Assembly: GCA_000503875.1 (NCBI GenBank)
Contig: CP006913.1
Span: forward strand, 150,001 to 182,000
Direction: 5' to 3'
Length of the DNA: 32,000 nt
Source: Candidatus Saccharimonadota bacterium
GTDB taxonomy: Bacteria > Patescibacteriota > Gracilibacteria > Absconditabacterales > Absconditicoccaceae
A program made the translations under genes and the position numbers. The notes below the pieces were generated by a model. It saw nothing but the letters and a program-made list of their open reading frames with translations, was not told the origin of the DNA and searched no databases. Shown in pieces: positions 3,825 to 30,993 of this stretch. Every line of letters begins with the position of its first letter. Within the stretch, counting starts at the first letter, position 1.

Positions 3825-6596
3825 CTAATCTTTCATTTTACATTTACTAATTTCAAAGTTTAATAATTCAATTTCTTGTTTTATTTTGGAGATTTCATCT
3901 TTTTTTTGTTGGATTATACTATTGTCAGCTCCACTTGTATTAAGCTCTTGAACAAGATGTTTCAAATGTTGCATATATTCTTCTTTTTCTTGAAGTTGTT
4001 TTTGTAACAACAAGATGCCAGAAATACTAGGTTTGGACATAGCTTTTATTCCTATGGAAATATCAATAATGTCTTCTTTTTTGTAACCACAAGGGACTTC
4101 TTCATGATGAACAAGGTAAATAACATCTTCTGCATGTAATGTTTTTTTAAATAAGGATTCATTGCTTCTGGCAAATTTTATAAAATCTTGATTGGACCTG
4201 ATAAACAATCATACTACATCATGTTTTTTAAGTCCTAATCAGATTTTCATAGTTGAAAATCTATCTATAATTTCCATAAATAATGAGATAGAATAATTCT
4301 TTTGTATACTTGCAAAAGCTTTCAAAAATCAATTACTATCAATGTTTTTTTCAAATCAGAAAATATTTCATAATTCGTTGGTAAGTATTGGAAGATAAGG
4401 ATGAAGAAAAGATACAATAGTTTCTACAATACATAAACAAATATTACTAGAATGTTCAGATGGCGCAGATTTTATAAGTTCCAAATATTTTGAAGAAAAA
4501 TCTTGATGAATAAAATCAAAAACATTATGTACAAAAGTGCCTATTTGTTTTGGTGATTGTAGTTGTTGATACTCTTCTACAAGCTTAGTTAATTTAGAAA
4601 TAATTCGTCAATCAAAAGCACTAAATGTTGATATATTTTTTTCCAAGTTTTGTTGGATCTTTTTGTAGTTTATTGCCTTTGATCAATCAAAAAATGTTGT
4701 TTTAATATATCTACACGCATTCCAAAATTTGGAAATTGATTGATCCCATTCAGTAAAAATTTGTGAATCATATGTCTTTTCACTATCAGCTAAGGAAAGC
4801 AAACTTACTCTGATACAATCAGGATGATATGATTTTGTGATAGAAAGCTCGGCAACAGGTAAATTATTAGAATCTTTTTCGTTTTTTAGAGAAGGCAAAA
4901 CATGAATAGCTTCCAAAAAAGAATGGCCTAAATTATATTGAGCAAATAAAATATTTTTGATAGCTATTTTTAATGCATCTTGTTTGCTACAAAAAGTAAG
5001 AAGTTGGTTAATATCAGTTTTTTCTGCTTCTTGTAAAAGCATAGCTATTGTTGAAAAGTCATAACTGATGACTTGTTGATATTGCTGGATATCTTTCATA
5101 TCCGGATCAAATTTTTCAAAAGCAAAATGATATTTTTCATGTGCTCATTTTTCTAAACAAAAAGCATCATCTAAAATATCCAAAAGTTGGCTTACATTCT
5201 TTTCTAATGATTTCTCTTTATCAAGATTTTGAATAGCTTTTTCTAATACATCGAATTCTTTTTTTGTTTGAGGATATATTATTCCAATAAGAGAAAATAA
5301 CTGAGTAAACGATACTTGATCATGTGTATCGAAAATCATTGTTATAAATTCTTCTGCAGAAAATGTTGGTGGAAGTAGGTGATTAGAAATACAATGAAGA
5401 ATAAATAATCATAGTGCTAATCCTTGTTTAATTCAAACTGTTTTGTATGCCTCTTGTAATCGATTAGCATCCAAAATAAAAGTTCACTTCGTATTTGATC
5501 GTAAAGGAACAGGTACTCATGTTTTTTGATGAGCAGAAGCAATTCGATAAGAATTATCAATATAATCACGAGTAATTCCTGTTGAAGAAATAATTGCTTG
5601 ATTAAAAAATGATTCTATAGCCTCATCAGGGATTTTTACAAAAAATCCTTTCCAACTACGAAATATAAGATGTTCTTTGCTTTGTTGACAAACAGGTATT
5701 GTTCCTGTAAAGGATTCTGTATTGGTAAGATTTCCTATATCAGATAAGCTTTGTATAATATTAGAAAAAAATTCTTCAACAGATTTTTTTGCAAATAATC
5801 CAGCATTTTCTGTGAAATATCAATCTTTATCAATAGCATATGTATCAATTGGTAAGTTATGATCTTTGGCGATAGCCAATCATAATTTATCATGACCAGG
5901 AGTAACTCTATAAACACCACCATATCTAGTAAAATCAGCTCTTTCATCGATAATAATAGGAATTGTTTTGTTGATAATAGGAATAATGGCTTCTTGTCCT
6001 TTCAATTGTTTTGCCTTTTTATGTTGTGGATGAATAGCTATAGCAACATCCCCAAAAATAGTTTCAGGAGATTCTGTCATAACATCTAAAGAATGGTTTT
6101 TTGTACTAACAAAATATTTAATAGTATAACGATTCTTTTTATTTGAAATATGCTCTACTAGATCAGAAGCAACAGGTGTTTGATGTTTTGGGCTTCGATA
6201 TACAAGAAAACGATCTTCAAAAAGAGTCCCTTTGCGTAAGTGTTCTGCAAAAAATTGTTGAAGCGAAAAAGCAAAAGCAAAATCTTGCGGTATTTGTAAG
6301 CCAGGAATTAAATTAGAAAGTCAGAATTGTTTTAATTGTTTTTTTAAAAAAGAAAGAGAAGTATGGCTTTTTTCCTTGGTATCATGTAATGGATCCGGTA
6401 GGAAAAATCCTCACGAAAGAGGTTCTCCATAACGAATAGTATGAATAGTATCTAGCAAAAATAATCTAAATATTTGTTGGATATCAAAAGCATTTGTATA
6501 TTGCTCGGGAAGAAAAAAGAAAGGATGGTGTTGAGAAGAAAGTGATGAGTAAGAATCTATTTTTGTTTGTTTATATTGTTTTGGAAAATCACTCAT
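3825..6596 (-). CDS. valS: valyl-tRNA synthetase homologue (class I aaRS fold; HIGH and KMSKS signatures not recognisable)
   Basis: All minus-strand track ORFs 3825..4208, 4683..5099, 5145..5339, 5880..6080 and 6411..6596 share one frame. I translated the gaps 4209-4682, 5340-5879 and 6081-6410 and found only TGA, no TAA/TAG. ValRS blocks present: TESPETIFGDVAIAIHPQHKK, GGVYRVTPGHD, DGRIISKL..SSKYLELIK, KFWNACRYI, HPYLPILTNEL, C-terminal coiled coil. ATG at 6596, TAG at 3825-3827. Confidence 0.8.
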
Positions 6597-9432: not shown

Positions 9433-10389
9433 ATGATTAAGAAAATAAGTAAAGCAGTAATTATGATGATAACATTGCTAGGTATCGGTATGTGAGCAAT
9501 GCATGCAGTAGCACCATCATTTGATGATAATTTTGCTAATTATCTCACTGATAAAACTCCTGATCAATACGGAAGAGTAGAAACGGTATTTAGTTTTTCA
9601 AATTGTATTGATAGAAATCAAAGTATTATGGAGAATGTAAGAAATCTTTTCTATCCAAGTACTTTCAAAAGTGACAATCAATGTTCTTTAACAACAGGAG
9701 GATTGCTTTGGGATATGCTTAGAGTAATTACTTTTGCATTGATATTTGTCTTTATTGTAGTAGCAGGAATGAAATTTATTATGAATGGAACATCCTGAGA
9801 TGAAGCAAAAAAATGAGCAATGAGTCTTGTCTATATTGCATATGGAGCATTTCTTGTTTTTGGCGCAATTTGGATTTTGTGATACGTCCTCAATATAGAA
9901 AACGTGAAATGATCAACAGATCTCGTAAATAGTGTACAGAATAATTTATTTCTCCAAATTTTAAGTTTTTTCAAAGTATTGGCCTTTTTCCTAGCTATTA
10001 TTATGATGGTAGTATCATGATTTAAGATGATGGCTGCTATGGACAAAGAAGATAAAGTCAAAGCAGGAAAGCAATGAGCAATAAATGTAATTGTCGCATT
10101 GGTGTTTATCAAAATTGTAGATTATATTTTTTATATTGCACAAGCATCTGATTTCGCACAAAAAGCATCAACCTTGGTTTTGGATGTAGCCAAAATTCTT
10201 TGATGGATTCTTGGTATTTCATTTGTATTGGGGCTATTTTACGCAGGATATCAAATGTTCCTCTCTGGTGGAGATGAAAAAGCAATCAAAAAGACACAAT
10301 CAATTCTGATCAATATCGTTATCGTTTCTCTTGTTCTTTTCTTATTCTTACTCTTGGTGTACCAAATTTTCAATGAATTTGTAGGATAA
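9433..10389 (+). CDS. membrane protein made of three tandem TrbC/VirB2-like pilin hairpins
   Basis: ATG 9433, signal/TM MIKKISKAVIMMITLLGIGM. Three successive TM-charged loop-TM modules with loops NGTSGDEAKKG, AAMDKEDKVKAGKQG and LSGGDEKAIKKTQ. About 9 in-frame TGA. TAA at 10387-10389. Track ORF 9499..9798 is its first third. Confidence 0.65.
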
Positions 10390-12592: not shown

Positions 12593-13435
12593 TTACATAC
12601 ATTCTCTAAAAAGGATTTGAGACATTTGTTCTTGTATTTCTTGAGCTTTTATGCCAGCAACTTCGGCAAAGTCTTCACCACTACTCGCATGAATAATTCC
12701 ACGAGAACTATTTACAAGAAGTCCACATTGATCGTTTAGACCATAAATACATACATCATCTAAACTTCCTCCTTGTTCTCCAACACCGGGAACTAACAGA
12801 AAATGGTCTGGAACTATTTCCCTGATTGGTTGGAAATATTCAGCTTTTGTTGCTCCGACCACGAACATCGAATTATCTGGAGTGGCACCCCATTCATTTA
12901 CAGCTTTTTTTAGCATATGTTGGTAAACAGGAAGTGTTGTCTCTTCGATATGAAGTGTCTGTAAATCAGTAGATCCATCATTGCTTGTGAGAGCAAGTAT
13001 AACAGACCACTTATCCTTGTATGTCAAAAATGGTCCGACAGAATCAATCCCCATATATGGGGCAATTGTCATTCCATCAGCTCCAAGCTTTTCAAAGAAT
13101 GCTTTTGCATACATTTTGGAAGTGTTTTTGATATCACCTCTTTTTGCATCAGCAATAATTAAAATTTCGGGATAATGGCTCTTAATATAATTTACAGTAC
13201 ATTCCAATTGTACCCAGCCGGAACTTCCAAACATTTCATAAAAAGCTAAGTTTGGCTTGTATGCAATCGCATATTTTGCCGTAGCATCAATGATTTGTTT
13301 GTTAAATTCCAACAGTGGATATTCAATATTCTCCTCCAAAATGTGTTTAGGTATTTTGGTGATATCAGGGTCAAGTCCTACACAAAGAAATGATTCTTTC
13401 TTCATTATCTGATCAAATAATCGTTCTTTATTCAT
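12593..13435 (-). CDS. pyrF: orotidine-5'-phosphate decarboxylase, type 2
   Basis: Intact 280-aa ORF: [40 protein letters not shown]. No in-frame TGA at all. Confidence 0.9.
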
Positions 13436-13440
13436 GGTTT

Positions 13441-14253
13441 TTATTTTTTGTTGATGGATACTTTTAATAATAATTCTGCAAAGTCCCGTACACCAAGGAT
13501 AGAAGCAAGTTTACCATTGGTTTCTTTGTTGTAAAGTTCAAAGATCCCGATGCCACGTTCACGTTTTTTTTCGTTTTTGATTAATTCAAAAATAGGTTCT
13601 GGATGTTTAATAATTTTTTCACATCCCCATTTCAAAGGATCTTCCCAATACTTTATCAATTCCTGGTACATTGACTGGGAGATAAATCCATTATTCATAA
13701 GATACTGCCAAGAGTCGTTATCCAAGTCGACAATAGCATGTCTTTCAATACCAAGTTCTTCAAGAACCTTAACGCCGTTTTCCATACGATCTACATAAAA
13801 AAGCGCTTGTTTAATAGTACCACCAGCTTCTTGGATCATTTTTTGCCACTTACGAATTGAACTTCCTTCATTGTTTAAATCGCCAATGTGGAGAATTTTT
13901 TTGTCTTTCAAATCAAAAGTACCAAATGAAGTTTTACCATCTTTATATAGCATTTTAATGTCCTTCCCCAAATGATTCTGAATAGGGAATGCAAAAGGCC
14001 AGTCTCTACTTTCTCCTGCAGATATAATATCAATATCCATTTCTTGGTTATTAATATATTCAATCATTGCATTGATAGCGCTTTGTGAAGCACTGGCATT
14101 AGAAAACACAGCCATAGATTGTACGTAATAGGGACCAATCTGATTAGATGTATAATCAAACCAAGGTTTGTTTTTCTGTTCAGTGAATTCAAACCCATTA
14201 CAACTAACTAATAATTTTAGTTGCTCTTTTTTTAATTTTGGAAAATACCTCAT
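13441..14253 (-). CDS. pyrE: orotate phosphoribosyltransferase-like PRTase with C-terminal extension
   Basis: Intact 270-aa ORF placed 5 nt upstream of pyrF. PRPP-loop-like [17 protein letters not shown] aligns with PyrE RVMLVDDVITAGTAIRE, but the DD is GD. About 80 extra C-terminal residues. No in-frame TGA. Confidence 0.65.
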
Positions 14254-14388
14254 ACTTTTTATTTTTATTAGTTTGTATTTTTATTTGAAATGTAAATACT
14301 ATTTATATATTTAGATATAAAAATCAAGTCTATCAAAAATGATTAAAAATCTGACTTTTGTTTTGCATTCTCCTTATAAAACACTATA

Positions 14389-14410: not shown

Positions 14411-14531
14411 ATTGAAGGACTTAGAGACTTAGCAAAGTGAGTAGTTTATATTACCTGCTTTTCTAAGTTACTAGTTTCTTCTCCAAAATTTCTTTTGCCA
14501 CAAGGCAATTTTATATTTTCTTTATAAAAAT

Positions 14532-16667
14532 ATGTCAATAAAAAGAAAAGAGGTGAAAGTGATCGCTAAATCTTTTGATCGAGCAGGAAAATCGCTTTCA
14601 TTTGAGACAGGAAAATTAGCGGTACAAGCTGATTGTTCTCTCAAAATCGATTTAGGAGACAATCAATTGTTATGTTCTACGGTTATGGAAAAGAATCCAA
14701 GATCTGATATGGATTTTTTGCCATTGATGATTGATTTTAGAGATAGTTATTCTGCAGTAGGAAGACTTGGTGGTGCAGCATACAGAAGAAGAGAATGAAG
14801 ACCTTCTGATCAAGCAGTTCTTTACTCAAGACTTGTAGATAGAGCACTTAGACCAATGTTTCCAAAGGGGATGATCAATGATGTAATTATCACTATTTCT
14901 CCACTTGGAGTAGCTCAAGATATAGATCTTGGTGTAATGTCTATTGTAGGATCTTCATTATCAATTATGGTAGCAGGAATTCCTTTTGATGGTCCAGTAG
15001 GAGCGGCTCAAGTAGGATATATTGATGGTCAATATATCATCAATCCAACAAAAGAACAATTAAAAACGTCACTTCTCAATCTTCTCGTTTCAGGTAAAAA
15101 AGGATCAATCAATATGATCGAATGTGAAGGAAACGAAATACCAGAAGAAATTCTTAAACAAGCATTTGTTGAAGGACAAAAAGCAATTGACGAATCTTGT
15201 GATGCACAAGCAGCGTATCTTAAATTATGTACGGTTGAACCTAAAAAAATAGTATATAACAAACCATCAGACGAAGTTATCGCCTATGTTTCAAATATTC
15301 TTACTGCTGATAAACTTTCAGCTATGACAGGAAACGCAAAAGTAGGATTCAACGAATTATTTAGCAAATATGAAAAAGAAGCTATCGAAATAGCAAAAGA
15401 AAATATTGAAAATAACGATCTCGAAGATTTCACAGAAAGTAAGGTAAAGATGGCAGTCTTTTACGTTATCAAACATTTCCTTCGCCATCGTACATTAGAG
15501 ACAGGAAAGAGAATTGACGATAGAGATATCAAAGAAATTAGAACACTATATTGTGAAGTAGGATTGTTTCCAAGAACTCATGGAACTGGTTTGTTCCGAA
15601 GAGGGGATACGCAAGTACTAAGTACCGTTACTCTAGGAGGTCCTGGAGAATACCTTATTATCGATGATATGGAAAATGATTATGTGAAACAAAGATATAT
15701 GCATCATTACAATTTCCCTCCATTTTCAGTGGGAGATGCAAAAGCTATTAGAGGAACAGGTCGTAGAGAAATTGGACATGGAAGATTAGCAGAAAAAGCT
15801 ATCGAACCTATGCTTCCAGCAAAAGAAGACTTCCCATACACTATCAGAGTTGTTTCTGATTGTCTAGGATCAGGAGGTTCTACATCAATGGGATCAGTTT
15901 GTGGATCAACACTTTCATTAATGGATGCTGGAGTACCTTTGAAAAAACCAGTTGCAGGAATTGCAATGGGATTGATGACAGAACATGAAGAAGACGGAAC
16001 AATCACTAAACATATGGTGCTTAATGATCTTATGGCAACAGAAGATTTTATGGGAGATATGGATTTCAAAGTAGCAGGAACAAAAGAAGGAGTAACAGCT
16101 ATCCAACTTGATACCAAACTCAAGGGAATTACTATGGATATCGTTCATGAAACTATCACAAGAGCATGCGAAGGATACAAAGAAATTATGGATTTTATGC
16201 TTGAAACTATCCCTGCACCAAGAACTGCAGTTGGTACCTATGCACCAAAGATCTTCACGATGAAAATTAGCCCAGATAAGATCAAAGAAGTGATCGGAAA
16301 ATGAGGTGATGTGATCAACAAGATTATCGAAGTTTCTGGTTGAGTAAAAATCGATCTTTCAGATGATGGAATGTGTTTTATCACGCATCAAGATCAATTA
16401 GCTATCGACAAGGCAGTTGAGATGATCAAAGAAATCATTACTGATCTTGAAATTGGACAAACGTTTGACGCAAAAATCACAAGAGTAGAGGAATATGGTA
16501 TTTTCGTTCAACTTCCAAAGAAGAAGATGGGACTTTGTCATGTCTCTCAACTTGGACAAAAATTCACCCCTCCATTGACGAATCATTTCAAAATAGGAAC
16601 AACTCTTAAAGTTACTATCACATGAATCGATCCTACAGGTAAGATTTGATGTAAAATAACAGCTTAA
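14532..16667 (+). CDS. pnp: polyribonucleotide nucleotidyltransferase (PNPase)
   Basis: Track ORFs 14532..14798, 14856..16304 and 16371..16625 share one frame. TGA codons fall on RRE-G-RPS (14796-14798) and VIGK-G-GD (16302-16304). Two RNase PH domains, then KH and S1 (GQTFDAKITRVEEYGIFVQL). TAA at 16665-16667. Confidence 0.95.
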
Positions 16668-23340: not shown

Positions 23341-24201
23341 TTATCCGAAAAAGTTTGGATTGATAAGTTGTAAGATAACTCCAGATGCTCCGAGAAGCGC
23401 TAATGCAGAAATAACATTACCTATTATTTTTCTTCATTTTTGAGCTCATTCTTCAGTTCATCAAGATGCAGAAATCATAACTCCACCAATCAAAATTCAT
23501 ACAAAACTAATCAAAAGAATAATAGAAACAAGTAATCTACTTAATCCTCACATAAGCACTGGGAAAGCTGTATTTTCATCAACAACAAGTCCAACACTAG
23601 GTTGAGTAGTAGAAGCTTTCTTATAAACAATACATTGTCAAATAAAAGGGACATTTGTATTGAGTAATATTCCTTCGCAACAAACAGTATCTTTTAGTTC
23701 AATATCGTAATAGGTTTTTTTACAGCATTTGCCTTGAGAATTCAGAAGTCATCAGGGACATGGTTCTTCATCTTTGTTTTTATTATCTTCACCCGTAATT
23801 TCACTTGAACTAGATGCACTTCAGTCTTTTGGATCAGTTGAGGCAGCAAGTGTTCCAGTTTGTGCGACACCTTTTTCTTGACCATCAACAGCACCAGTTG
23901 TAATTGTACATTTACCATTTTCCCATTTGTTAGTGGTGCATTCGCAGATATGACATTGTAGTCATTTTGGACACCCTCATACAGTAGATAAAGTACTTTT
24001 TGTATTATCTTTATTGCAATAGGTTTGCAGTCTTTGGCTACTTTCTGGATATTCACAGGTATAGAAATGTGATCAATGTGTAGCAGGTATTGTTTCTTGG
24101 GTTCTACAATCAACTCAATCAACTCAAAAGGTAATTCATCATCACAACAAAAAACTTATTCACAAAAACAAAACTAAACTATAGAATATATTTTTATACA
24201 T
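23341..24201 (-). CDS. secreted Cys-rich protein with C-terminal TrbC/VirB2-like pilin hairpin (paralogue A)
   Basis: Frame found by reading TGA as Gly (19 in-frame TGA out of about 36 Gly). MYKNIFYSLVLFLGISFLLGGGITFG signal peptide, about 20 Cys, then TAFPVLMGGLSRLLVSIILLISFVGILIGGVMISASGGTEEGAQKGRKIIGNVISALALLGASGVILQLINPNFFG and stop. Standard-code ORFs here are in the wrong frame or strand. Confidence 0.65.
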
Positions 24202-24220
24202 ATGTTTTTTTGAAATTAAA

Positions 24221-24850
24221 TTATCCAAAAAAGTTTGGATTGATAAGACGAAGGATAACTCCAGATGCCCCTAAAAGAGCCAAAGCTACAATAACTTTTC
24301 CGATAAGCGCTTTTCCTTTGGATGCTCAACTATCATCACCACCAGAAGCAGAGATCATTACTCAACCAGCTAATATGCCTACAAATCCCATCAAAATAAT
24401 CACGGTAACCAATATTTTAGTAAGTCCTCACATAAGTATAGGAAAAGCAGTTCTTTCAGTAACTTTACTTTCATTTGCATCGTTAGATCAATCATCTGTA
24501 GATCATTTAGATAGTTCTATACAATTTCCTATAAAAGGTACATTGGTATTGAGTTGGATTCCACAACAGACTCATGTATCTGTACAAGGAACACATCATT
24601 TTTTTTCAACTGCTTTAGTTCAATCTGGACAGATCAATCATTTAAATCAAGTGTCTGCTGTTTCTAAATTTTTGTCCTCTGTAGTATATGTCTTTGGTCA
24701 GTATTTTGTATTATCAACATTTGTTGCAGTATTTTGATAAATATTCGTACTTGGCGGAGTAAGCGTAATTTCAGCAGCTGGATTTTGTGCTAATGTAATA
24801 TTTCCAAGCATCAAAAATCCTATACCCATTATTCAAACAATTTTTTTCAT
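24221..24850 (-). CDS. secreted Cys-rich protein with C-terminal TrbC/VirB2-like pilin hairpin (paralogue B)
   Basis: ATG 24850: MKKIV-G-IMGIGFLMLGNITLAQN signal peptide. 12 in-frame TGA out of about 28 Gly. Shares CCxGIxLNTNVPFIGxCI and the whole C-terminal hairpin (..GGVMISASGG..ALALLGASGVILRLINPNFFG) with paralogue A. Confidence 0.65.
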
Positions 24851-24878
24851 CGAAGAAAAATTCATTATAAGAAGTTAA

Positions 24879-26614: not shown

Positions 26615-29600
26615 TTATTGTTGAGGTGTTGTTGTTTGATGAATTGTTCTCCATCGATTGTTTAGATATGATTCTAGAAGAAGTTTATTTGATCTTTCAT
26701 CAAATTTCTCACTATTTTTTGTTAAACCATCTTCAGAGAAAACTCTAATTGTCTTTTCTTTTCCATAGAATTCTAGGGCTCATAAGTAGGTTGTGTCAAA
26801 AGCATCATCACCGATATCTCCATTTGTTTCTTTGTCGATAGTAACCGATTTTGCTTTGTTGATAGCATTTGTTACTTTAAATAATTCTTCATAAGTCTCA
26901 AAAGACAGAGATAATCAAGTTATTTTTTTTGAAGTAAGATCAATAGGTGTTGATTGTTCATATGTCTTCAAAGAAACATTTCCTTTTTCATCTTTTTCAA
27001 ATTTAATATTTTTTTCTTCAGAAGGATGCTCTTTATAAAAAGCTTTGAATCCATCTATGATTTTTTTTCTAGTATCAGAATTTGTAAAGTTTTCTATAAC
27101 AGGAAAGAATCATTCTGCTTTATCTTGCATTAACCAAAGATTATTGAGATATTCTATATAAAGTTGTTTGTTGCTTGTTTCAGTTAATTTAGGAGAAACA
27201 GTTCTCAAACCACCTCGCCACAATCCATCAGAAACAGCTGCCACATCTGGTCTTCGATTTCGTATAGATTTATCATCAAATATTATATCATCATTAGCAA
27301 TTTTTTGACCAAAAGGATCTATTATTTTTTGTGATTGTATGTTTTCAAATGTGCTTCTAATTTTGTTGGTTAGATTTGCTGTTTTAAACATATCTTCAAA
27401 GTTACCAAAATCTATATTTAGACCAGCAACTTGATTTTTATTGAAATCAATAGGCGTTGTTTTTCTATAACTGTTTACGTTCAATGTATTTCCAGCAGCA
27501 ACTAATTCAACTCAAATAGTTTTGATGCTAGGATATTTTTGGTAAAATTCTTTATAATCTTTTTTGATTTTTTCTTTTGCTGCTTCAGAAAGATCGAGTT
27601 TGTTTATTTCATCTATATCTTTTTGTAATTTTTCTTGATCTATAATATTTGCATCAATTTCTTCTTCAACTTCTTCTGTTGTGTCTAATGCAGCACTTCA
27701 AGTAGCGACAGTAGGAATTACAAATGATTCGTTACTATTTGTTCATCCTTTTCGATGTTTCTGATTATTTAAATAATTAACATAGGCATCTTTGCTTGCA
27801 TCACCTGCAAGTTGTTGAGATATTTTTTCTAATCCATCATTAGAAATCATAGTCACATCTTGATTCCATACTTTATATCGTTCAGTATTATCAAAAGTTA
27901 TTCTGCTACCTACTCCAGCTATTCACTTTTCAATATAGAAAGGTTTATCTGTTTTTATAGGTGTAAGATTTCTAGTTAAGTTCTTTATTCTGTTTGTTAA
28001 ATTAGCTACACGAAGAAGTTCCTTAGTCATAGGAAATGTCATGGCAGATCCATTTTGATTTACAAGTCCAGGAATTGATTTATTCCCAAGATCCAATGGA
28101 GTAGATTCATTGTGTGTAGTCAAAACAAGTTTTCCATTTTGTTTTTCTAGATTAATATCTGCTTTTGAATCCATATAGAATTGATAAACAGCTTCATGAA
28201 GTTGCTTTTTTTCATCTTCAGTGACATCTGTAAGCGCATCAATTTGGGTATCTAGTTTTGTTTTTATTTCAGGAGCAATATCTACTGCTTTTTCAAATAC
28301 ACCTAGTGATTCTAATTCGGCTAATGTAGGAGAACCTGTTTTTACAAAAGATACAATTCTATCGTCCACTTCTTTGTTGGTTTGATCATATCAATTGTCT
28401 ATCATATGTTTGTTAATAAGTAGTGCTCTTTGAATAACATCATTAGCTAGTTTATCAAATTTTTCTTTTTCATTTTTTGGATCACTTAATGTTGCTCGAT
28501 CTAGACCGACACCTTTCAAAGCAAAATCTACAATGCCTTTTTCATCTTCTTTTCCTATGTTTTCCAAAAATTCTTTTCTCATTTTTGCTTGATTGATTTC
28601 ATCAGCTGTTTTTCCTGTTGGATTTTGAATAATATTCTTATAATTAATCATTTGTGCTTCTCGAATATCTGGTTTAATTCTCATTTTTCAATCGCTTCAT
28701 AATTGAAGCATATCTTTCATTTTTCCGTATGTTTCTTGTCCAAAAAGAAGTGATGCTCAACTTACAGATTGTGCAAGTTGTTCTATTCAAGGTGATTGAG
28801 CACCATTTTCTTTATTATTATCTCCTTTAATCCATCCAAGTATTTTATTAAAAGTAGTTGCTCATTCTCATCCTTTAAACAAATCTTGAGGTCTTCCAGC
28901 TGTAAAAAGAAGAAGTCATGCAGCTCCTCATAACCATCACCAATTGCTAGCATCTTTATAGCCATCTTTTTTAAACATTATATTCCATGTACTTTTAATG
29001 GCTTTCCATCAAAGAAATATTCCTCCAGCAAGAAGTGCAACATTCCCAAAAGATTTATAAAAATTTTGACCTCTCTCCGTGGTATTTTGAATTCATTTTG
29101 ATGCATTATCAAGATAAGAAAATAGTCATTTTTCTGTATTTTGATCAATATTTTCATTTACTGAATCGTTATTAGTACCTGTTACTGTTTTTTCTTTATT
29201 ATCTGCATCTCCTGCGATATTAACATTTCCTCATTGATCAACACCTGCAGGATTTGTGATAACAATATTTTTTGCTAAATAAGGATGTTCGTTTTGTAAG
29301 TTCTTAAGAAGAGTAGTAGTGTATTCGTATGCTTCTTTGTTTTTTGGTGTATAAGGATATTTAGTAGGATCTTTTTTGTTATTTACAATATCTTCAAGAT
29401 ATTTTTGAAAATCTGCCAAATCTTCTGCGCGCATTTGTTCTAAAGTCGCGTTTCCAGTTATTGCATCAACCTTGGCTTGTCTTTTATTGTAGCTTTTTAT
29501 TGCGTTTAAATAATCTTTAGCATCTTTTTGACTAAATTTAGTTGCATCTATGTTGTATGCTGGAGTAATATCAGCTGTTCAGCTTCTTAAAGCTTCATCT

Positions 29601-30304
29601 TGTGATTCAAAGAGAGGAACGTTATCACTAAGTTTATCTAATTGTTGAGAGATATTCTTTAATTTATTTTCGATAAGAGGATCAGAAATATCTAATTCTC
29701 TCATTTTCTTTTCAACATTTCTTAGATCTTTAAGGCGTCTTTCTGATTCATCTTTATGTATTTCTCGATATCTTCTTTCTTGTTTAGATCTGGCATATTT
29801 TGCAGTAAGTCGAAATTGTTCTCTTCTTCCACTATCTTTTTGATCATCAAAAAACTTTTTGAGTTCGTTAATTCTTCGATTGATAACAGTTGGGTTTGTT
29901 GTTCTTTCATGATGAGCTAAGATCTCATTACGCAAAGCCTTTATTTCGTTTGAAGTACCACGAGTAATAATAAGTTGATCTTTTTCTAATCCTGATAAAC
30001 GAACAGCAATATTCTCATCTACCTGTTTTTGTTGTTCAAGAAAACTTAATATAAATTTCTCTACATCATAACCATTTGCTAGCGCAAATTTTGTTTCTTG
30101 TTTGTTGTTGCCCAAAAGAGTAAAGATGTAGCTATCTCAATTTTTTTGTATTTTAATATCTTTGAGATCTTTTACATTATTTTCATTTAGGGTTAGCAAA
30201 AACTGGGCCTCATTGTTTATAAAACTCAATGGGGCAGTGTCTTTTACCTCTGAGATCTGGATTGTCTTACTATCCATTGTGTAATCGATAAATAAAAGTT
30301 TCAT
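26615..30304 (-). CDS. giant orphan membrane protein (about 1229 aa): N-terminal coiled-coil region, central TM hairpin, repeated C-terminal modules
   Basis: Track ORFs 30137..30373, 29579..30115, 29231..29434, 28391..28684, 27923..28369 and 27110..27484 all share one frame. I translated every gap and found about 23 in-frame TGA and no TAA/TAG until TAA at 26615-26617. Start taken at ATG 30304 (alternative 30277), downstream of the preceding terminator. Confidence 0.7.
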
Positions 30305-30334
30305 TACCAAGTATATTCCAAAAAACTTTTCAAT

Positions 30335-30368
30335 CAAAAAAAATCCACCTTTTATATAAAATGGATTT
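30335..30368 (-). terminator. probable rho-independent terminator between the 197-aa gene and the giant gene
   Basis: Minus strand reads AAATCCA..loop..TGGATTT followed by T8. The loop is long and AT-rich. Confidence 0.45.
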
Positions 30369-30399
30369 GACAATTTATTTTTAAATGATTTAATATGTT

Positions 30400-30993
30400 T
30401 TAGCTATAAAGTTCGTTTTTTACCTGTAAAATAAATTTTTCACGCTGCTCTTCATCCAAAGATGGAATATCGTATAGTTTATAATGATTTATGACAGCTA
30501 TCAAAAAGTCCATAAGAAGTGACGCATCCAAAGGGATATTGTCATGATATTTGATAGATAATTTTTTGATATAATTGATATATCATGTTAAATTCATGGG
30601 TTCCTTGGTAAGTAGTTCTTCAAAAACTCAAGAAATTCAGATTTTTTTTGCTTCTTGTATATAAAAAGGAAAAAAGAATCAGATTACTACCAATGTATTT
30701 ATTTTTTTTCTCAAATATGTTGTCCCTGTGGAAGGGTGTTTTGTTTTGAAAAAAAGTTCATATAAAAGTGTTATAAGTTTTTCATCTTTTATATTATTTA
30801 TAAGAAAAGTAAGAAAACTTGCCAATTTAGCATTAGCTTGTTTATCTTGCTGTATTTGTTGATGAACTTGTTTTGCCTGTTTTGATTCTTCCTGGATTCT
30901 TCTAGTAGCTTCTTCGGTTACTTTGTTGATATCTTCTCTAGGTGCTCATCCAATATCTAGTCCTTCTCAAAGGTTTCAAAATTCATTCGCCAT
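30400..30993 (-). CDS. hypothetical protein, 197 aa
   Basis: AGGAAAC precedes ATG 30993. MANEF-G-NL-G-EGLDI-G-GAPREDINK.., about 8 in-frame TGA, one hydrophobic segment (LVVIGFFFPFYI). TAA at 30400-30402. Absent from the ORF track because of TGA density. Confidence 0.5.

Follow-up and report, generated by a model that had tools for sequence, protein, structure and literature searches.

The stretch of DNA analysed here (the window) comprises 32,000 nucleotides of the 1,177,760-bp contig CP006913.1 (positions 150,001 to 182,000 of the forward strand) from candidate division SR1 bacterium RAAC1_SR1_1, a member of the Absconditabacteria, and the gene in question encodes a protein resembling valyl-tRNA synthetase (ValRS), listed as 'ValX' in Table 1. 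It is the only ValRS-like locus in the window, and its product is 100% identical to AHB40961.1 (P148_SR1C00001G0151), which carries the GenBank label 'hypothetical protein'. A plus-strand reading of positions 3825–6596 was rejected, being closed and containing no open reading frame (ORF). On the minus strand the frame opens with an ATG at 6594–6596 and runs for 923 codons to a TAG, with 16 in-frame TGA codons and no internal TAA or TAG, much as the initial annotation of this DNA had described it. The G+C content of the window is ~31%, and its long ORFs emerge only when TGA is read as a sense codon. An identical protein was recovered from an independent Logan/ENA assembly, the sole difference being a table-4 translation of the TGA codons (entry P0347 is the same sequence so translated), and the available close pairs of the gene differ by 0–4 nt.

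The genetic code was established from conserved columns. In the PNPase gene of the window (14475–16667), TGA codons occupy invariant glycines (RRE[TGA]RPS, VIGK[TGA]GD), and UGA is therefore taken to encode Gly; translation table 4 (UGA = Trp) was rejected on the same columns, while plain table 25 was refined by the addition of CGA = Trp. Absconditabacteria have been predicted to read CGA and CGG as Trp as well (Shulgina and Eddy, PMC8629427). The ValRS-like gene contains five CGA codons, four of which (4605–4607, 5499–5501, 5544–5546 and 6195–6197) fall on invariant Trp columns of ValRS (VNW, DWCISRQ, IPxW, DxWI). The true protein accordingly departs from the GenBank translation at residues 134, 351, 366, 379 and 664, and with CGA as Trp the blocks formerly read as 'DGRIISKL' and 'SYRIAS' become DGWIISKL and SYWIAS. 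CGA or CGG likewise stands on invariant ValRS Trp columns in seven further loci (L005, L012, L016, L020, L033, L035 and L036). Codons in such positions provide independent support for the reassignment predicted for the Absconditabacteria, and with this reassignment the table-25 GenBank translations of the RAAC1 genome show Arg where Trp is meant. Codon usage in the window ORFs was 44 per 10,000 for CGA and 73 for TGG. One Absconditabacteria-type genome of 47% GC (L119/L120, with the P0284 gene at 10001–13114 in L119) has a valS with no TGA, 19 CGA/CGG and only 8 TGG codons, so that in this one gene the Trp reassignment is used heavily and UGA = Gly is unused.

Searches against Pfam returned Anticodon_1 (E = 7.6e-11) and a LeuRS-editing match below threshold, with no match to tRNA-synt_1; tRNA_SAD/AlaX, YbaK and DTD domains were also without a Pfam or NCBIfam match at E ≤ 1. 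Against the NCBIfam valS models TIGR00422 and NF004349, the protein scored 184.1 and 201.5 bits with cut-offs of 612.1 and 704, missing the equivalog cut-off, and the profile matches were limited to the CP1 region (residues 78–323) and the anticodon-binding region (residues 581–760). Thermus thermophilus ValRS (PDB 1GAX) was matched at E = 1.7e-22 over residues 84–316 and 581–744. An AlphaFold2 model was obtained with a mean predicted local distance difference test (pLDDT) score of 85.4 and a predicted template-modelling score (pTM) of 0.77; its best Foldseek match was the 1GAX ValRS–tRNA complex (E = 6.7e-29, template-modelling scores 0.58/0.62), followed by IleRS and LeuRS. The architecture of ValRS, consisting of Rossmann fold, CP1, helical anticodon-binding domain and C-terminal coiled coil, is thus predicted with confidence to be kept. 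The helical insertion falls between the WCISRQ and DTWFSS regions and is common to fully canonical ValRS of SR1.

Table 1. Features of the ValRS-like gene and its upstream neighbour (positions are those of the window)
Feature	Residues	Positions	Strand	Remarks
ValRS-like gene ('ValX')	923 aa + TAG stop	3825..6596	-	UGA = Gly, CGA = Trp
PPPNVTGxLHxGH position: LPEQYTNAFDIQQ	29-41	6474..6512	-	MAFFT alignment against canonical ValRS
CP1 (editing-type) domain	136-322	5631..6191	-	most conserved part of the family
CP1 pocket motif RVTPGHDKLG	230-239	5880..5909	-	
WCISRQxWWGHRIPxW position: SYWIASAHQKTGVPVPLW	349-366	5499..5552	-	both Trp are CGA codons
Helical insertion, ~130 aa	376-505	5082..5471	-	specific to the Absconditabacteria ValRS lineage
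Homologous KMSKS loop: PSLKNEKDSNNLPVAEL	568-584	4845..4895	-	no KMSKS
Anticodon-binding helical domain	601-760	4317..4796	-	Pfam Anticodon_1; KFWNACRYI, DGWIISKL, SSKYLELIK, HPYLPILTNEL
C-terminal alpha/beta junction and coiled coil	761-855 (junction), 856-923 (coiled coil)	3828..4316	-	
Upstream neighbour gene	543-553 aa	6628..8286	-	secreted/membrane protein; same strand, 31-nt intergenic gap

Within this scaffold the signatures of the synthetic site are missing. HIGH is replaced by FDIQQ (residues 37–41), which in the model lies between strand 31–33 and helix 39–56, at the strand–loop–helix junction of the Rossmann fold. The initial annotation had read LPEQYTNAFDIQQ at the PPPN/HIGH position and SYWIASAHQKTGVPVPLW at the WCISRQ position, and both placements were reproduced by MAFFT and fit the predicted geometry of the fold. 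Its placement of KMSKS at DKEKSLEKNVSQ (residues 459–470, positions 5187–5222) had to be rejected, since that peptide lies inside the helical insertion; the homologous loop comes after strand 561–567 and reads PSLKNEKDSNNLPVAEL, and as it too is without the motif, the claim that KMSKS is absent holds at the corrected site. PPPN, DHAG, WCISRQ, DTWFSS and GxDIxFFW are lost as well, and no HxGH or KMSKS-like peptide was present in any frame of the coding strand. From this pattern we consider it very probable that the protein does not aminoacylate.

The gene belongs to a degenerate family of at least 34 further clusters (899–1003 aa, 23–74% identity), which align to it over their full length, come from independent assemblies and have intact ORFs; named members, among the matches listed, were labelled SR1 or Absconditabacteria. 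PPPN, DHAG, DTWFSS, GxDIxFFW and KMSKS were missing from 34 out of 34 members, and HxGH was retained only in P0021–23 (as HLGH) and possibly in P0013. Nine other members scored 132–424 bits against NCBIfam valS, far under the cut-offs. When retention was computed over the 196 columns with a conservation of 90% or more among 75 canonical ValRS, the family kept 0.22 of those in the first half of the Rossmann fold and 0.17 in the second half (which contains KMSKS), compared with 0.62 for CP1 and 0.55 for the anticodon-binding domain; for the invariant columns of PPPN, DHAG, WCISRQ, DTWFSS and GxDIxFFW, values were mostly 0–0.26, a few flanking Pro, Gly, Ser and Phe residues excepted.

A similar picture was obtained from mean pairwise column identities in the degenerate family versus canonical SR1 ValRS: 0.25 versus 0.63 in Rossmann half 1, 0.23 versus 0.68 in Rossmann half 2, 0.53 versus 0.60 in CP1, 0.47 versus 0.29 in the C-terminal junction and 0.41 in both sets in the coiled coil. 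Conservation of the junction and coiled coil is thus equal to or above that of canonical ValRS, and CP1 contains 27 columns that are invariant across the family. Constraint thus no longer centres on the Rossmann core and has moved to CP1, the anticodon-binding bundle, the C-terminal junction and the coiled coil, the parts of ValRS that hold tRNAVal and its 3′ end. Column by column, the alignments show a family maintained under what we take to be purifying selection, which bears chiefly on CP1 and on the tRNA-binding modules of the C-terminal part. The N-terminal region is also well conserved inside the RAAC1 subclade (FDIQQ[IL]FRLF[LV]LD). Profile, orthologue and structure comparisons, all proposed with the initial annotation, thus bear out its reading of the catalytic signatures: tRNA-synt_1 is unmatched and valS scores stay far below the cut-offs, all 34 clusters are without KMSKS and are most conserved in CP1, and the confident model has a ValRS fold with FDIQQ at the strand–loop–helix junction. 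As for the anticodon-binding blocks, their claimed conservation is supported by the Anticodon_1 match, with the correction of one block to DGWIISKL.

Residue numbers of T. thermophilus ValRS were transferred to CP1 by HMMER alignment to 1GAX. Residues of the TxRPET and K-x-T-P-x-H-D motifs were kept at Thr174, Pro177, Glu178, Thr179, Thr232, Pro233, His235 and Asp236, and T. thermophilus Thr219, Thr272 and Asp276 are preserved. However, the similarity of the block to the ValRS editing domain, on which the initial annotation had relied in calling it well conserved, does not extend to the whole pocket. T. thermophilus Lys270 corresponds to Arg230 and is Arg in 34 of 34 members (Lys retention 0%); the universal Asp279, the second Asp of the HDxxD motif, corresponds to Gly239 (TGA codon 5880–5882) and is Gly or Ser throughout the 34; and Arg216, kept by 6% of the family, is Ser176 here. 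This Asp anchors the α-amino group of the substrate; in IleRS its mutation to alanine lowers deacylation 10^4-fold, and the same residue is used by ValRS and LeuRS (PMC4861432). Together, the family-wide replacement of Asp279 and Lys270 and the effect of the IleRS mutation make classical Thr-tRNAVal trans-editing unlikely. CP1 is conserved as a domain, with canonical Thr-tRNAVal editing doubtful, so that the initial description of a homologue with retained editing goes beyond what the alignments support. The fixed Lys-to-Arg and Asp-to-Gly/Ser changes instead suggest that CP1 serves in binding or sensing, or else hydrolyses a substrate for which no α-amino anchor would be needed.

Canonical relatives were sought by scanning metagenomes for PPPNxTG(TGA)xLHxGH. 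The scan produced 33 loci, nearly all low in GC and with many in-frame TGA codons, which implies that organisms using this code have canonical ValRS. Three types were distinguished: one of ~885 aa, for which the named relatives among the matches listed were all Gracilibacteria; one of ~1000 aa (type A), whose named relatives among the matches listed were 'valine--tRNA ligase [Candidatus Absconditabacteria/Absconditabacterales]'; and one of 883 aa. CGA or CGG was found on invariant Trp columns in type A and in the 883-aa type. Two other candidates for an SR1 ValRS, P0038 and P0046, came from other bacteria and were rejected. Type A has every motif intact, aligns to the ValRS-like protein over its full length and has the insertion in common with it. 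In neighbour-joining trees (100 bootstraps), the degenerate family was monophyletic in 100 of 100 replicates and was united with type A in 94–100, while type A by itself was monophyletic in only 0–2; the nearest canonical relative of the degenerate clade was the P0284 group (41–73 replicates). Going by these trees, the degenerate clade is nested within canonical type A.

The chromosomal neighbourhood was compared with that of the P0284 genome (L119/L120), where YceG is followed by a homologue of the gene upstream of the ValRS-like gene, then by one inserted gene for a peptidase and by canonical valS, with RNase J and a methyltransferase after it. That homologue is 31% identical over 550 aa to the window's 553-aa protein, and YceG, RNase J and the methyltransferase are also present in the window. 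The upstream protein has a signal peptide and a C-terminal transmembrane segment and showed no Pfam match; a gene of ~545 aa is paired with the degenerate gene across the RAAC1 subclade and even in P0026, which is only 28% identical. Co-transcription of the upstream gene with the ValRS-like gene is possible. The nested phylogeny, the common insertion and the common neighbourhood together argue for a native valS that long ago lost catalysis a single time, and not for a duplicate. We thus regard the gene as most probably the native valS of Absconditabacteria, the loss of catalysis going back to one event in the common ancestor of a large subclade. Of the 'catalytically dead paralogue' offered in the initial annotation, 'dead' is well supported, given the loss of the class I signatures in 34 of 34 members (HxGH aside), and 'paralogue' in the sense of a duplicate does not.

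This raises the matter of how tRNAVal is charged. RAAC1 and ACD80 have been reported to carry an extra ValRS copy (Kantor et al. 2013), and because the window gene was deposited as hypothetical, the gene recognised as ValRS in that study must lie elsewhere. The 883-aa type offers a precedent for replacement. L012, with all motifs, ~30 TGA codons and 6 CGA/CGG codons, is 64–72% identical to the ValRS of Fusobacterium, Ilyobacter, Cetobacterium and Psychrilyobacter, and 70–91% identical to at least 10 loci in SR1-type genomes, including 'candidate division SR1 bacterium ... ORAL', where CGA/CGG codons stand on Fusobacterial Trp positions (e.g. 20/21, 19/20 and 8/8). The resemblance points to horizontal acquisition of a Fusobacteria-like ValRS by host-associated and environmental SR1 lineages, and its occurrence in genomes of SR1 code means that horizontal ValRS replacement has happened in the phylum. 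The canonical ValRS of SR1 genomes have an intact CP1 of their own. Fusobacteria-like loci were seen in metagenomes (L012, L036 and L009) and in genomes (at least L037–L040, L043, L046, L064, L077, L078 and L082); three records bear the label Peribacteria or 'uncultured bacterium' and yet use the SR1 code. Synthetase remodelling in SR1 may extend beyond ValRS (PMC3812714).

We consider it the better-supported reading, and a probable one, that the gene is a relic of native valS encoding a non-charging pseudo-synthetase with a function directed at the tRNA 3′ end through CP1; for that function taken on its own, the chances appear evenly balanced. In outline, aminoacylation would have been lost once in the subclade ancestor, after which a full-length, ValRS-shaped protein was presumably kept by purifying selection. 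Judging from domain conservation, the protein would still dock a tRNA along its ValRS-type surface, tRNAVal being the likeliest candidate, and since the synthetic site is gone, the 3′ end could be presented only to the remodelled CP1 pocket. The protein would then act in trans, either by binding or sensing the 3′ end of the tRNA or by a hydrolysis whose specificity is unlike Thr-tRNAVal editing, while Val-tRNAVal would be supplied by a canonical ValRS from a second gene of the genome (for RAAC1, according to the literature).

Several observations weigh against this account. The putative tRNA binding is deduced from domain conservation, and the missing Asp anchor of CP1 speaks against any ordinary aminoacyl-ester hydrolysis, making a CP1-centred activity speculative. 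P0021–23 keep HLGH, so that catalytic decay appears stepwise, and some residual nucleotide binding is possible in members of this kind. The second ValRS was not found for RAAC1 or for any other genome with a degenerate copy. No RAAC1 protein was among the matches listed when the window protein, the Gracilibacteria-type or the native SR1-type ValRS served as query, which does not imply absence; CP006913 was not among the listed loci of a genome scan with the Fusobacteria-type ValRS, nor were JAQUVI01, CAYLMI01, CAZPFR01 and CAZOFM01 among the Fusobacteria-type loci listed; and pairing of degenerate with canonical copies by accession or assembly gave no match.

The most serious competitor is a conventional trans-editing factor, in which the protein would be a dedicated deacylase of Thr-tRNAVal (or a similar substrate) working through the CP1 site as ValRS does. 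CP1 is indeed the best-conserved domain, with Thr179, Thr232, His235 and Asp236 and all tRNA-binding modules kept, but the anchor Asp, Lys270 and, mostly, Arg216 are gone, a change of the first alone being enough to cost IleRS ~10^4-fold in deacylation (PMC4861432), and a separate Thr-tRNAVal editor would be redundant because the canonical ValRS of SR1 genomes have an intact CP1; we regard this explanation as unlikely. A somewhat better, though still doubtful, prospect is that the protein represents the first CP1-based trans-acting enzyme, its new specificity arising from the Lys-to-Arg and Asp-to-Gly/Ser changes of the pocket. That it might still be a valyl-tRNA synthetase, possibly the only one of the cell, with non-canonical catalytic residues, is in keeping with the predicted persistence of the Rossmann fold, the good conservation of the FDIQQ region inside the RAAC1 subclade and the failure to find another RAAC1 ValRS here. 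However, not one residue of HIGH, KMSKS, PPPN, DHAG, DTWFSS or GxDIxFFW is conserved family-wide, and the Rossmann halves are the least conserved parts (0.23–0.25), the reverse of the pattern to be expected for an active site. The closed RAAC1 genome, moreover, is reported to have two ValRS-type genes (Kantor et al. 2013), of which that in the window is annotated as hypothetical. The conservation pattern and the extra copy thus contradict the 'extraordinarily divergent synthetase' of the initial annotation, and we think an active synthetase quite improbable. Slightly less credit still is due to the stronger version, in which it would be the sole ValRS-type enzyme acting on tRNAVal in the RAAC1 subclade and would charge it without HIGH, KMSKS or a canonical valine pocket; if true, this subclade would have a class I synthetase whose active site had been invented anew.

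A functionless relic, that is, a slowly eroding pseudogene of a displaced valS, would account for the stepwise decay of motifs, as seen from the survival of HLGH in P0021–23, and for the long branches of the degenerate family. Against such erosion stand a 2.8-kb frame free of TAA and TAG in DNA of ~30% GC, its persistence through 34 divergent clusters down to 23% identity, the 27 invariant columns of CP1 and a C-terminal junction conserved above the level of active ValRS, and we rate this outcome as very improbable. An assembly or frameshift artefact as the cause of the missing motifs, for which no support was found, can be practically discounted: the identical protein was obtained from an independent assembly, the family is drawn from many others, synteny is conserved across relatives and the motifs are in no other frame. 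We therefore retain the pseudo-synthetase derived from native valS as the preferred explanation.

Other genes of the window were also inspected. The ORFs at 23341–24270 and 24221–24874 (both minus strand) are adjacent, overlapping paralogues for secreted proteins rich in Cys and in TGA-encoded Gly, with a common hydrophobic C-terminal module (NTNVPFIG.C ... TAFP[VI]LMGGL ... GGVMISASGG ... ALALLGASGVIL.LINPNFFG) and no Pfam match; a membrane protein at 9433–10389 (plus strand) matched T4SS_pilin (E = 7.7e-13). The products of all three may be pilin-like surface proteins of the epibiont. A 1263-aa ORF at 26615–30403 (minus strand) with 23 TGA codons shows no obvious family and contains internally repeated modules of ~200 aa ('...TPIDL...K...G...F...E.LF+.ANLTN+I+...'). 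The orotidine monophosphate (OMP) decarboxylase gene (12593–13510, minus strand) and the 280-aa gene upstream of it (13441–14280, minus strand) overlap by ~70 nt as stop-to-stop frames and have no TGA codon, whereas every other long ORF of the window has at least one.

To our knowledge, no catalytically dead relative of a full-length class Ia synthetase that keeps CP1 has been known so far, although dead synthetase homologues as such are a known kind. The novelty lies in a relic of this full-length class Ia form that still has CP1, is conserved across a clade and has stayed at the ancestral position. One sentence published in 2013 mentions that the gene exists (Kantor et al. 2013), and beyond it we found no published analysis of the gene in the literature on synthetases of Absconditabacteria, Absconditicoccus and Vampirococcus; databases list it as hypothetical or as 'class I tRNA ligase family protein'. 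After losing its task, the original gene appears to have persisted through a divergence spanning hundreds of millions of years, a view supported by the clear-cut move of selection towards CP1 and the domains that hold the tRNA. ValRS, usually among the most stable synthetases, has moreover been horizontally replaced in a recoded lineage (UGA = Gly, CGA = Trp). Should the function prove to be tRNA-directed, this would be the first trans-acting tRNA factor derived from class I and a natural experiment on a CP1 and tRNA-binding scaffold without its synthetic site. The gene also has a bearing on annotation and completeness estimates for Absconditabacteria, being labelled 'class I tRNA ligase family protein' by PGAP, or hypothetical.

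The closest canonical counterparts are the type A ValRS (P0284, P0259, P0244 and P0273; L033 and L020), which align over residues 68–921 at ~25–26% identity (E = 3.6e-81) and resemble the window protein in their ~130-aa insertion, C-terminal architecture and chromosomal neighbourhood. They differ from it in keeping PPPNVTG, HIGH, DHAG, WCISRQ, DTWFSS, GYDIIFFW, KMSKS and the CP1 Lys and Asp, none of which the window protein has. T. thermophilus ValRS (1GAX; editing domain 1WK9/1WKA), the best match in both sequence and structure, has the anticodon-binding motifs in common with the window protein, which unlike it carries an extra helical insertion and no synthetic-site signatures. Among pseudoenzymes, HisZ, the HisRS-like domain of GCN2 and insect SLIMP are synthetase-like proteins in which ligand or tRNA binding was kept after catalysis had been lost; they are class II derivatives and are true duplicates or fused domains. 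The window protein would be analogous to them in keeping the synthetase fold and binding surfaces under selection after loss of the catalytic motifs, and unlike them in being of class Ia with a CP1 domain and, apparently, the original gene, which stayed on when another took over its function. A 2020 review names ThrRS-ed, AlaX, YbaK/ProXp and DTD as trans-editing factors; these are small, some being homologous to class II editing domains, and a CP1-derived protein is not among them (PMC7373986). Like these factors, the protein may act in trans on the 3′ end of a tRNA once this has left the synthetase; unlike them, it is built on a full-length class I scaffold, with a CP1 that has parted with its catalytic anchor Asp.

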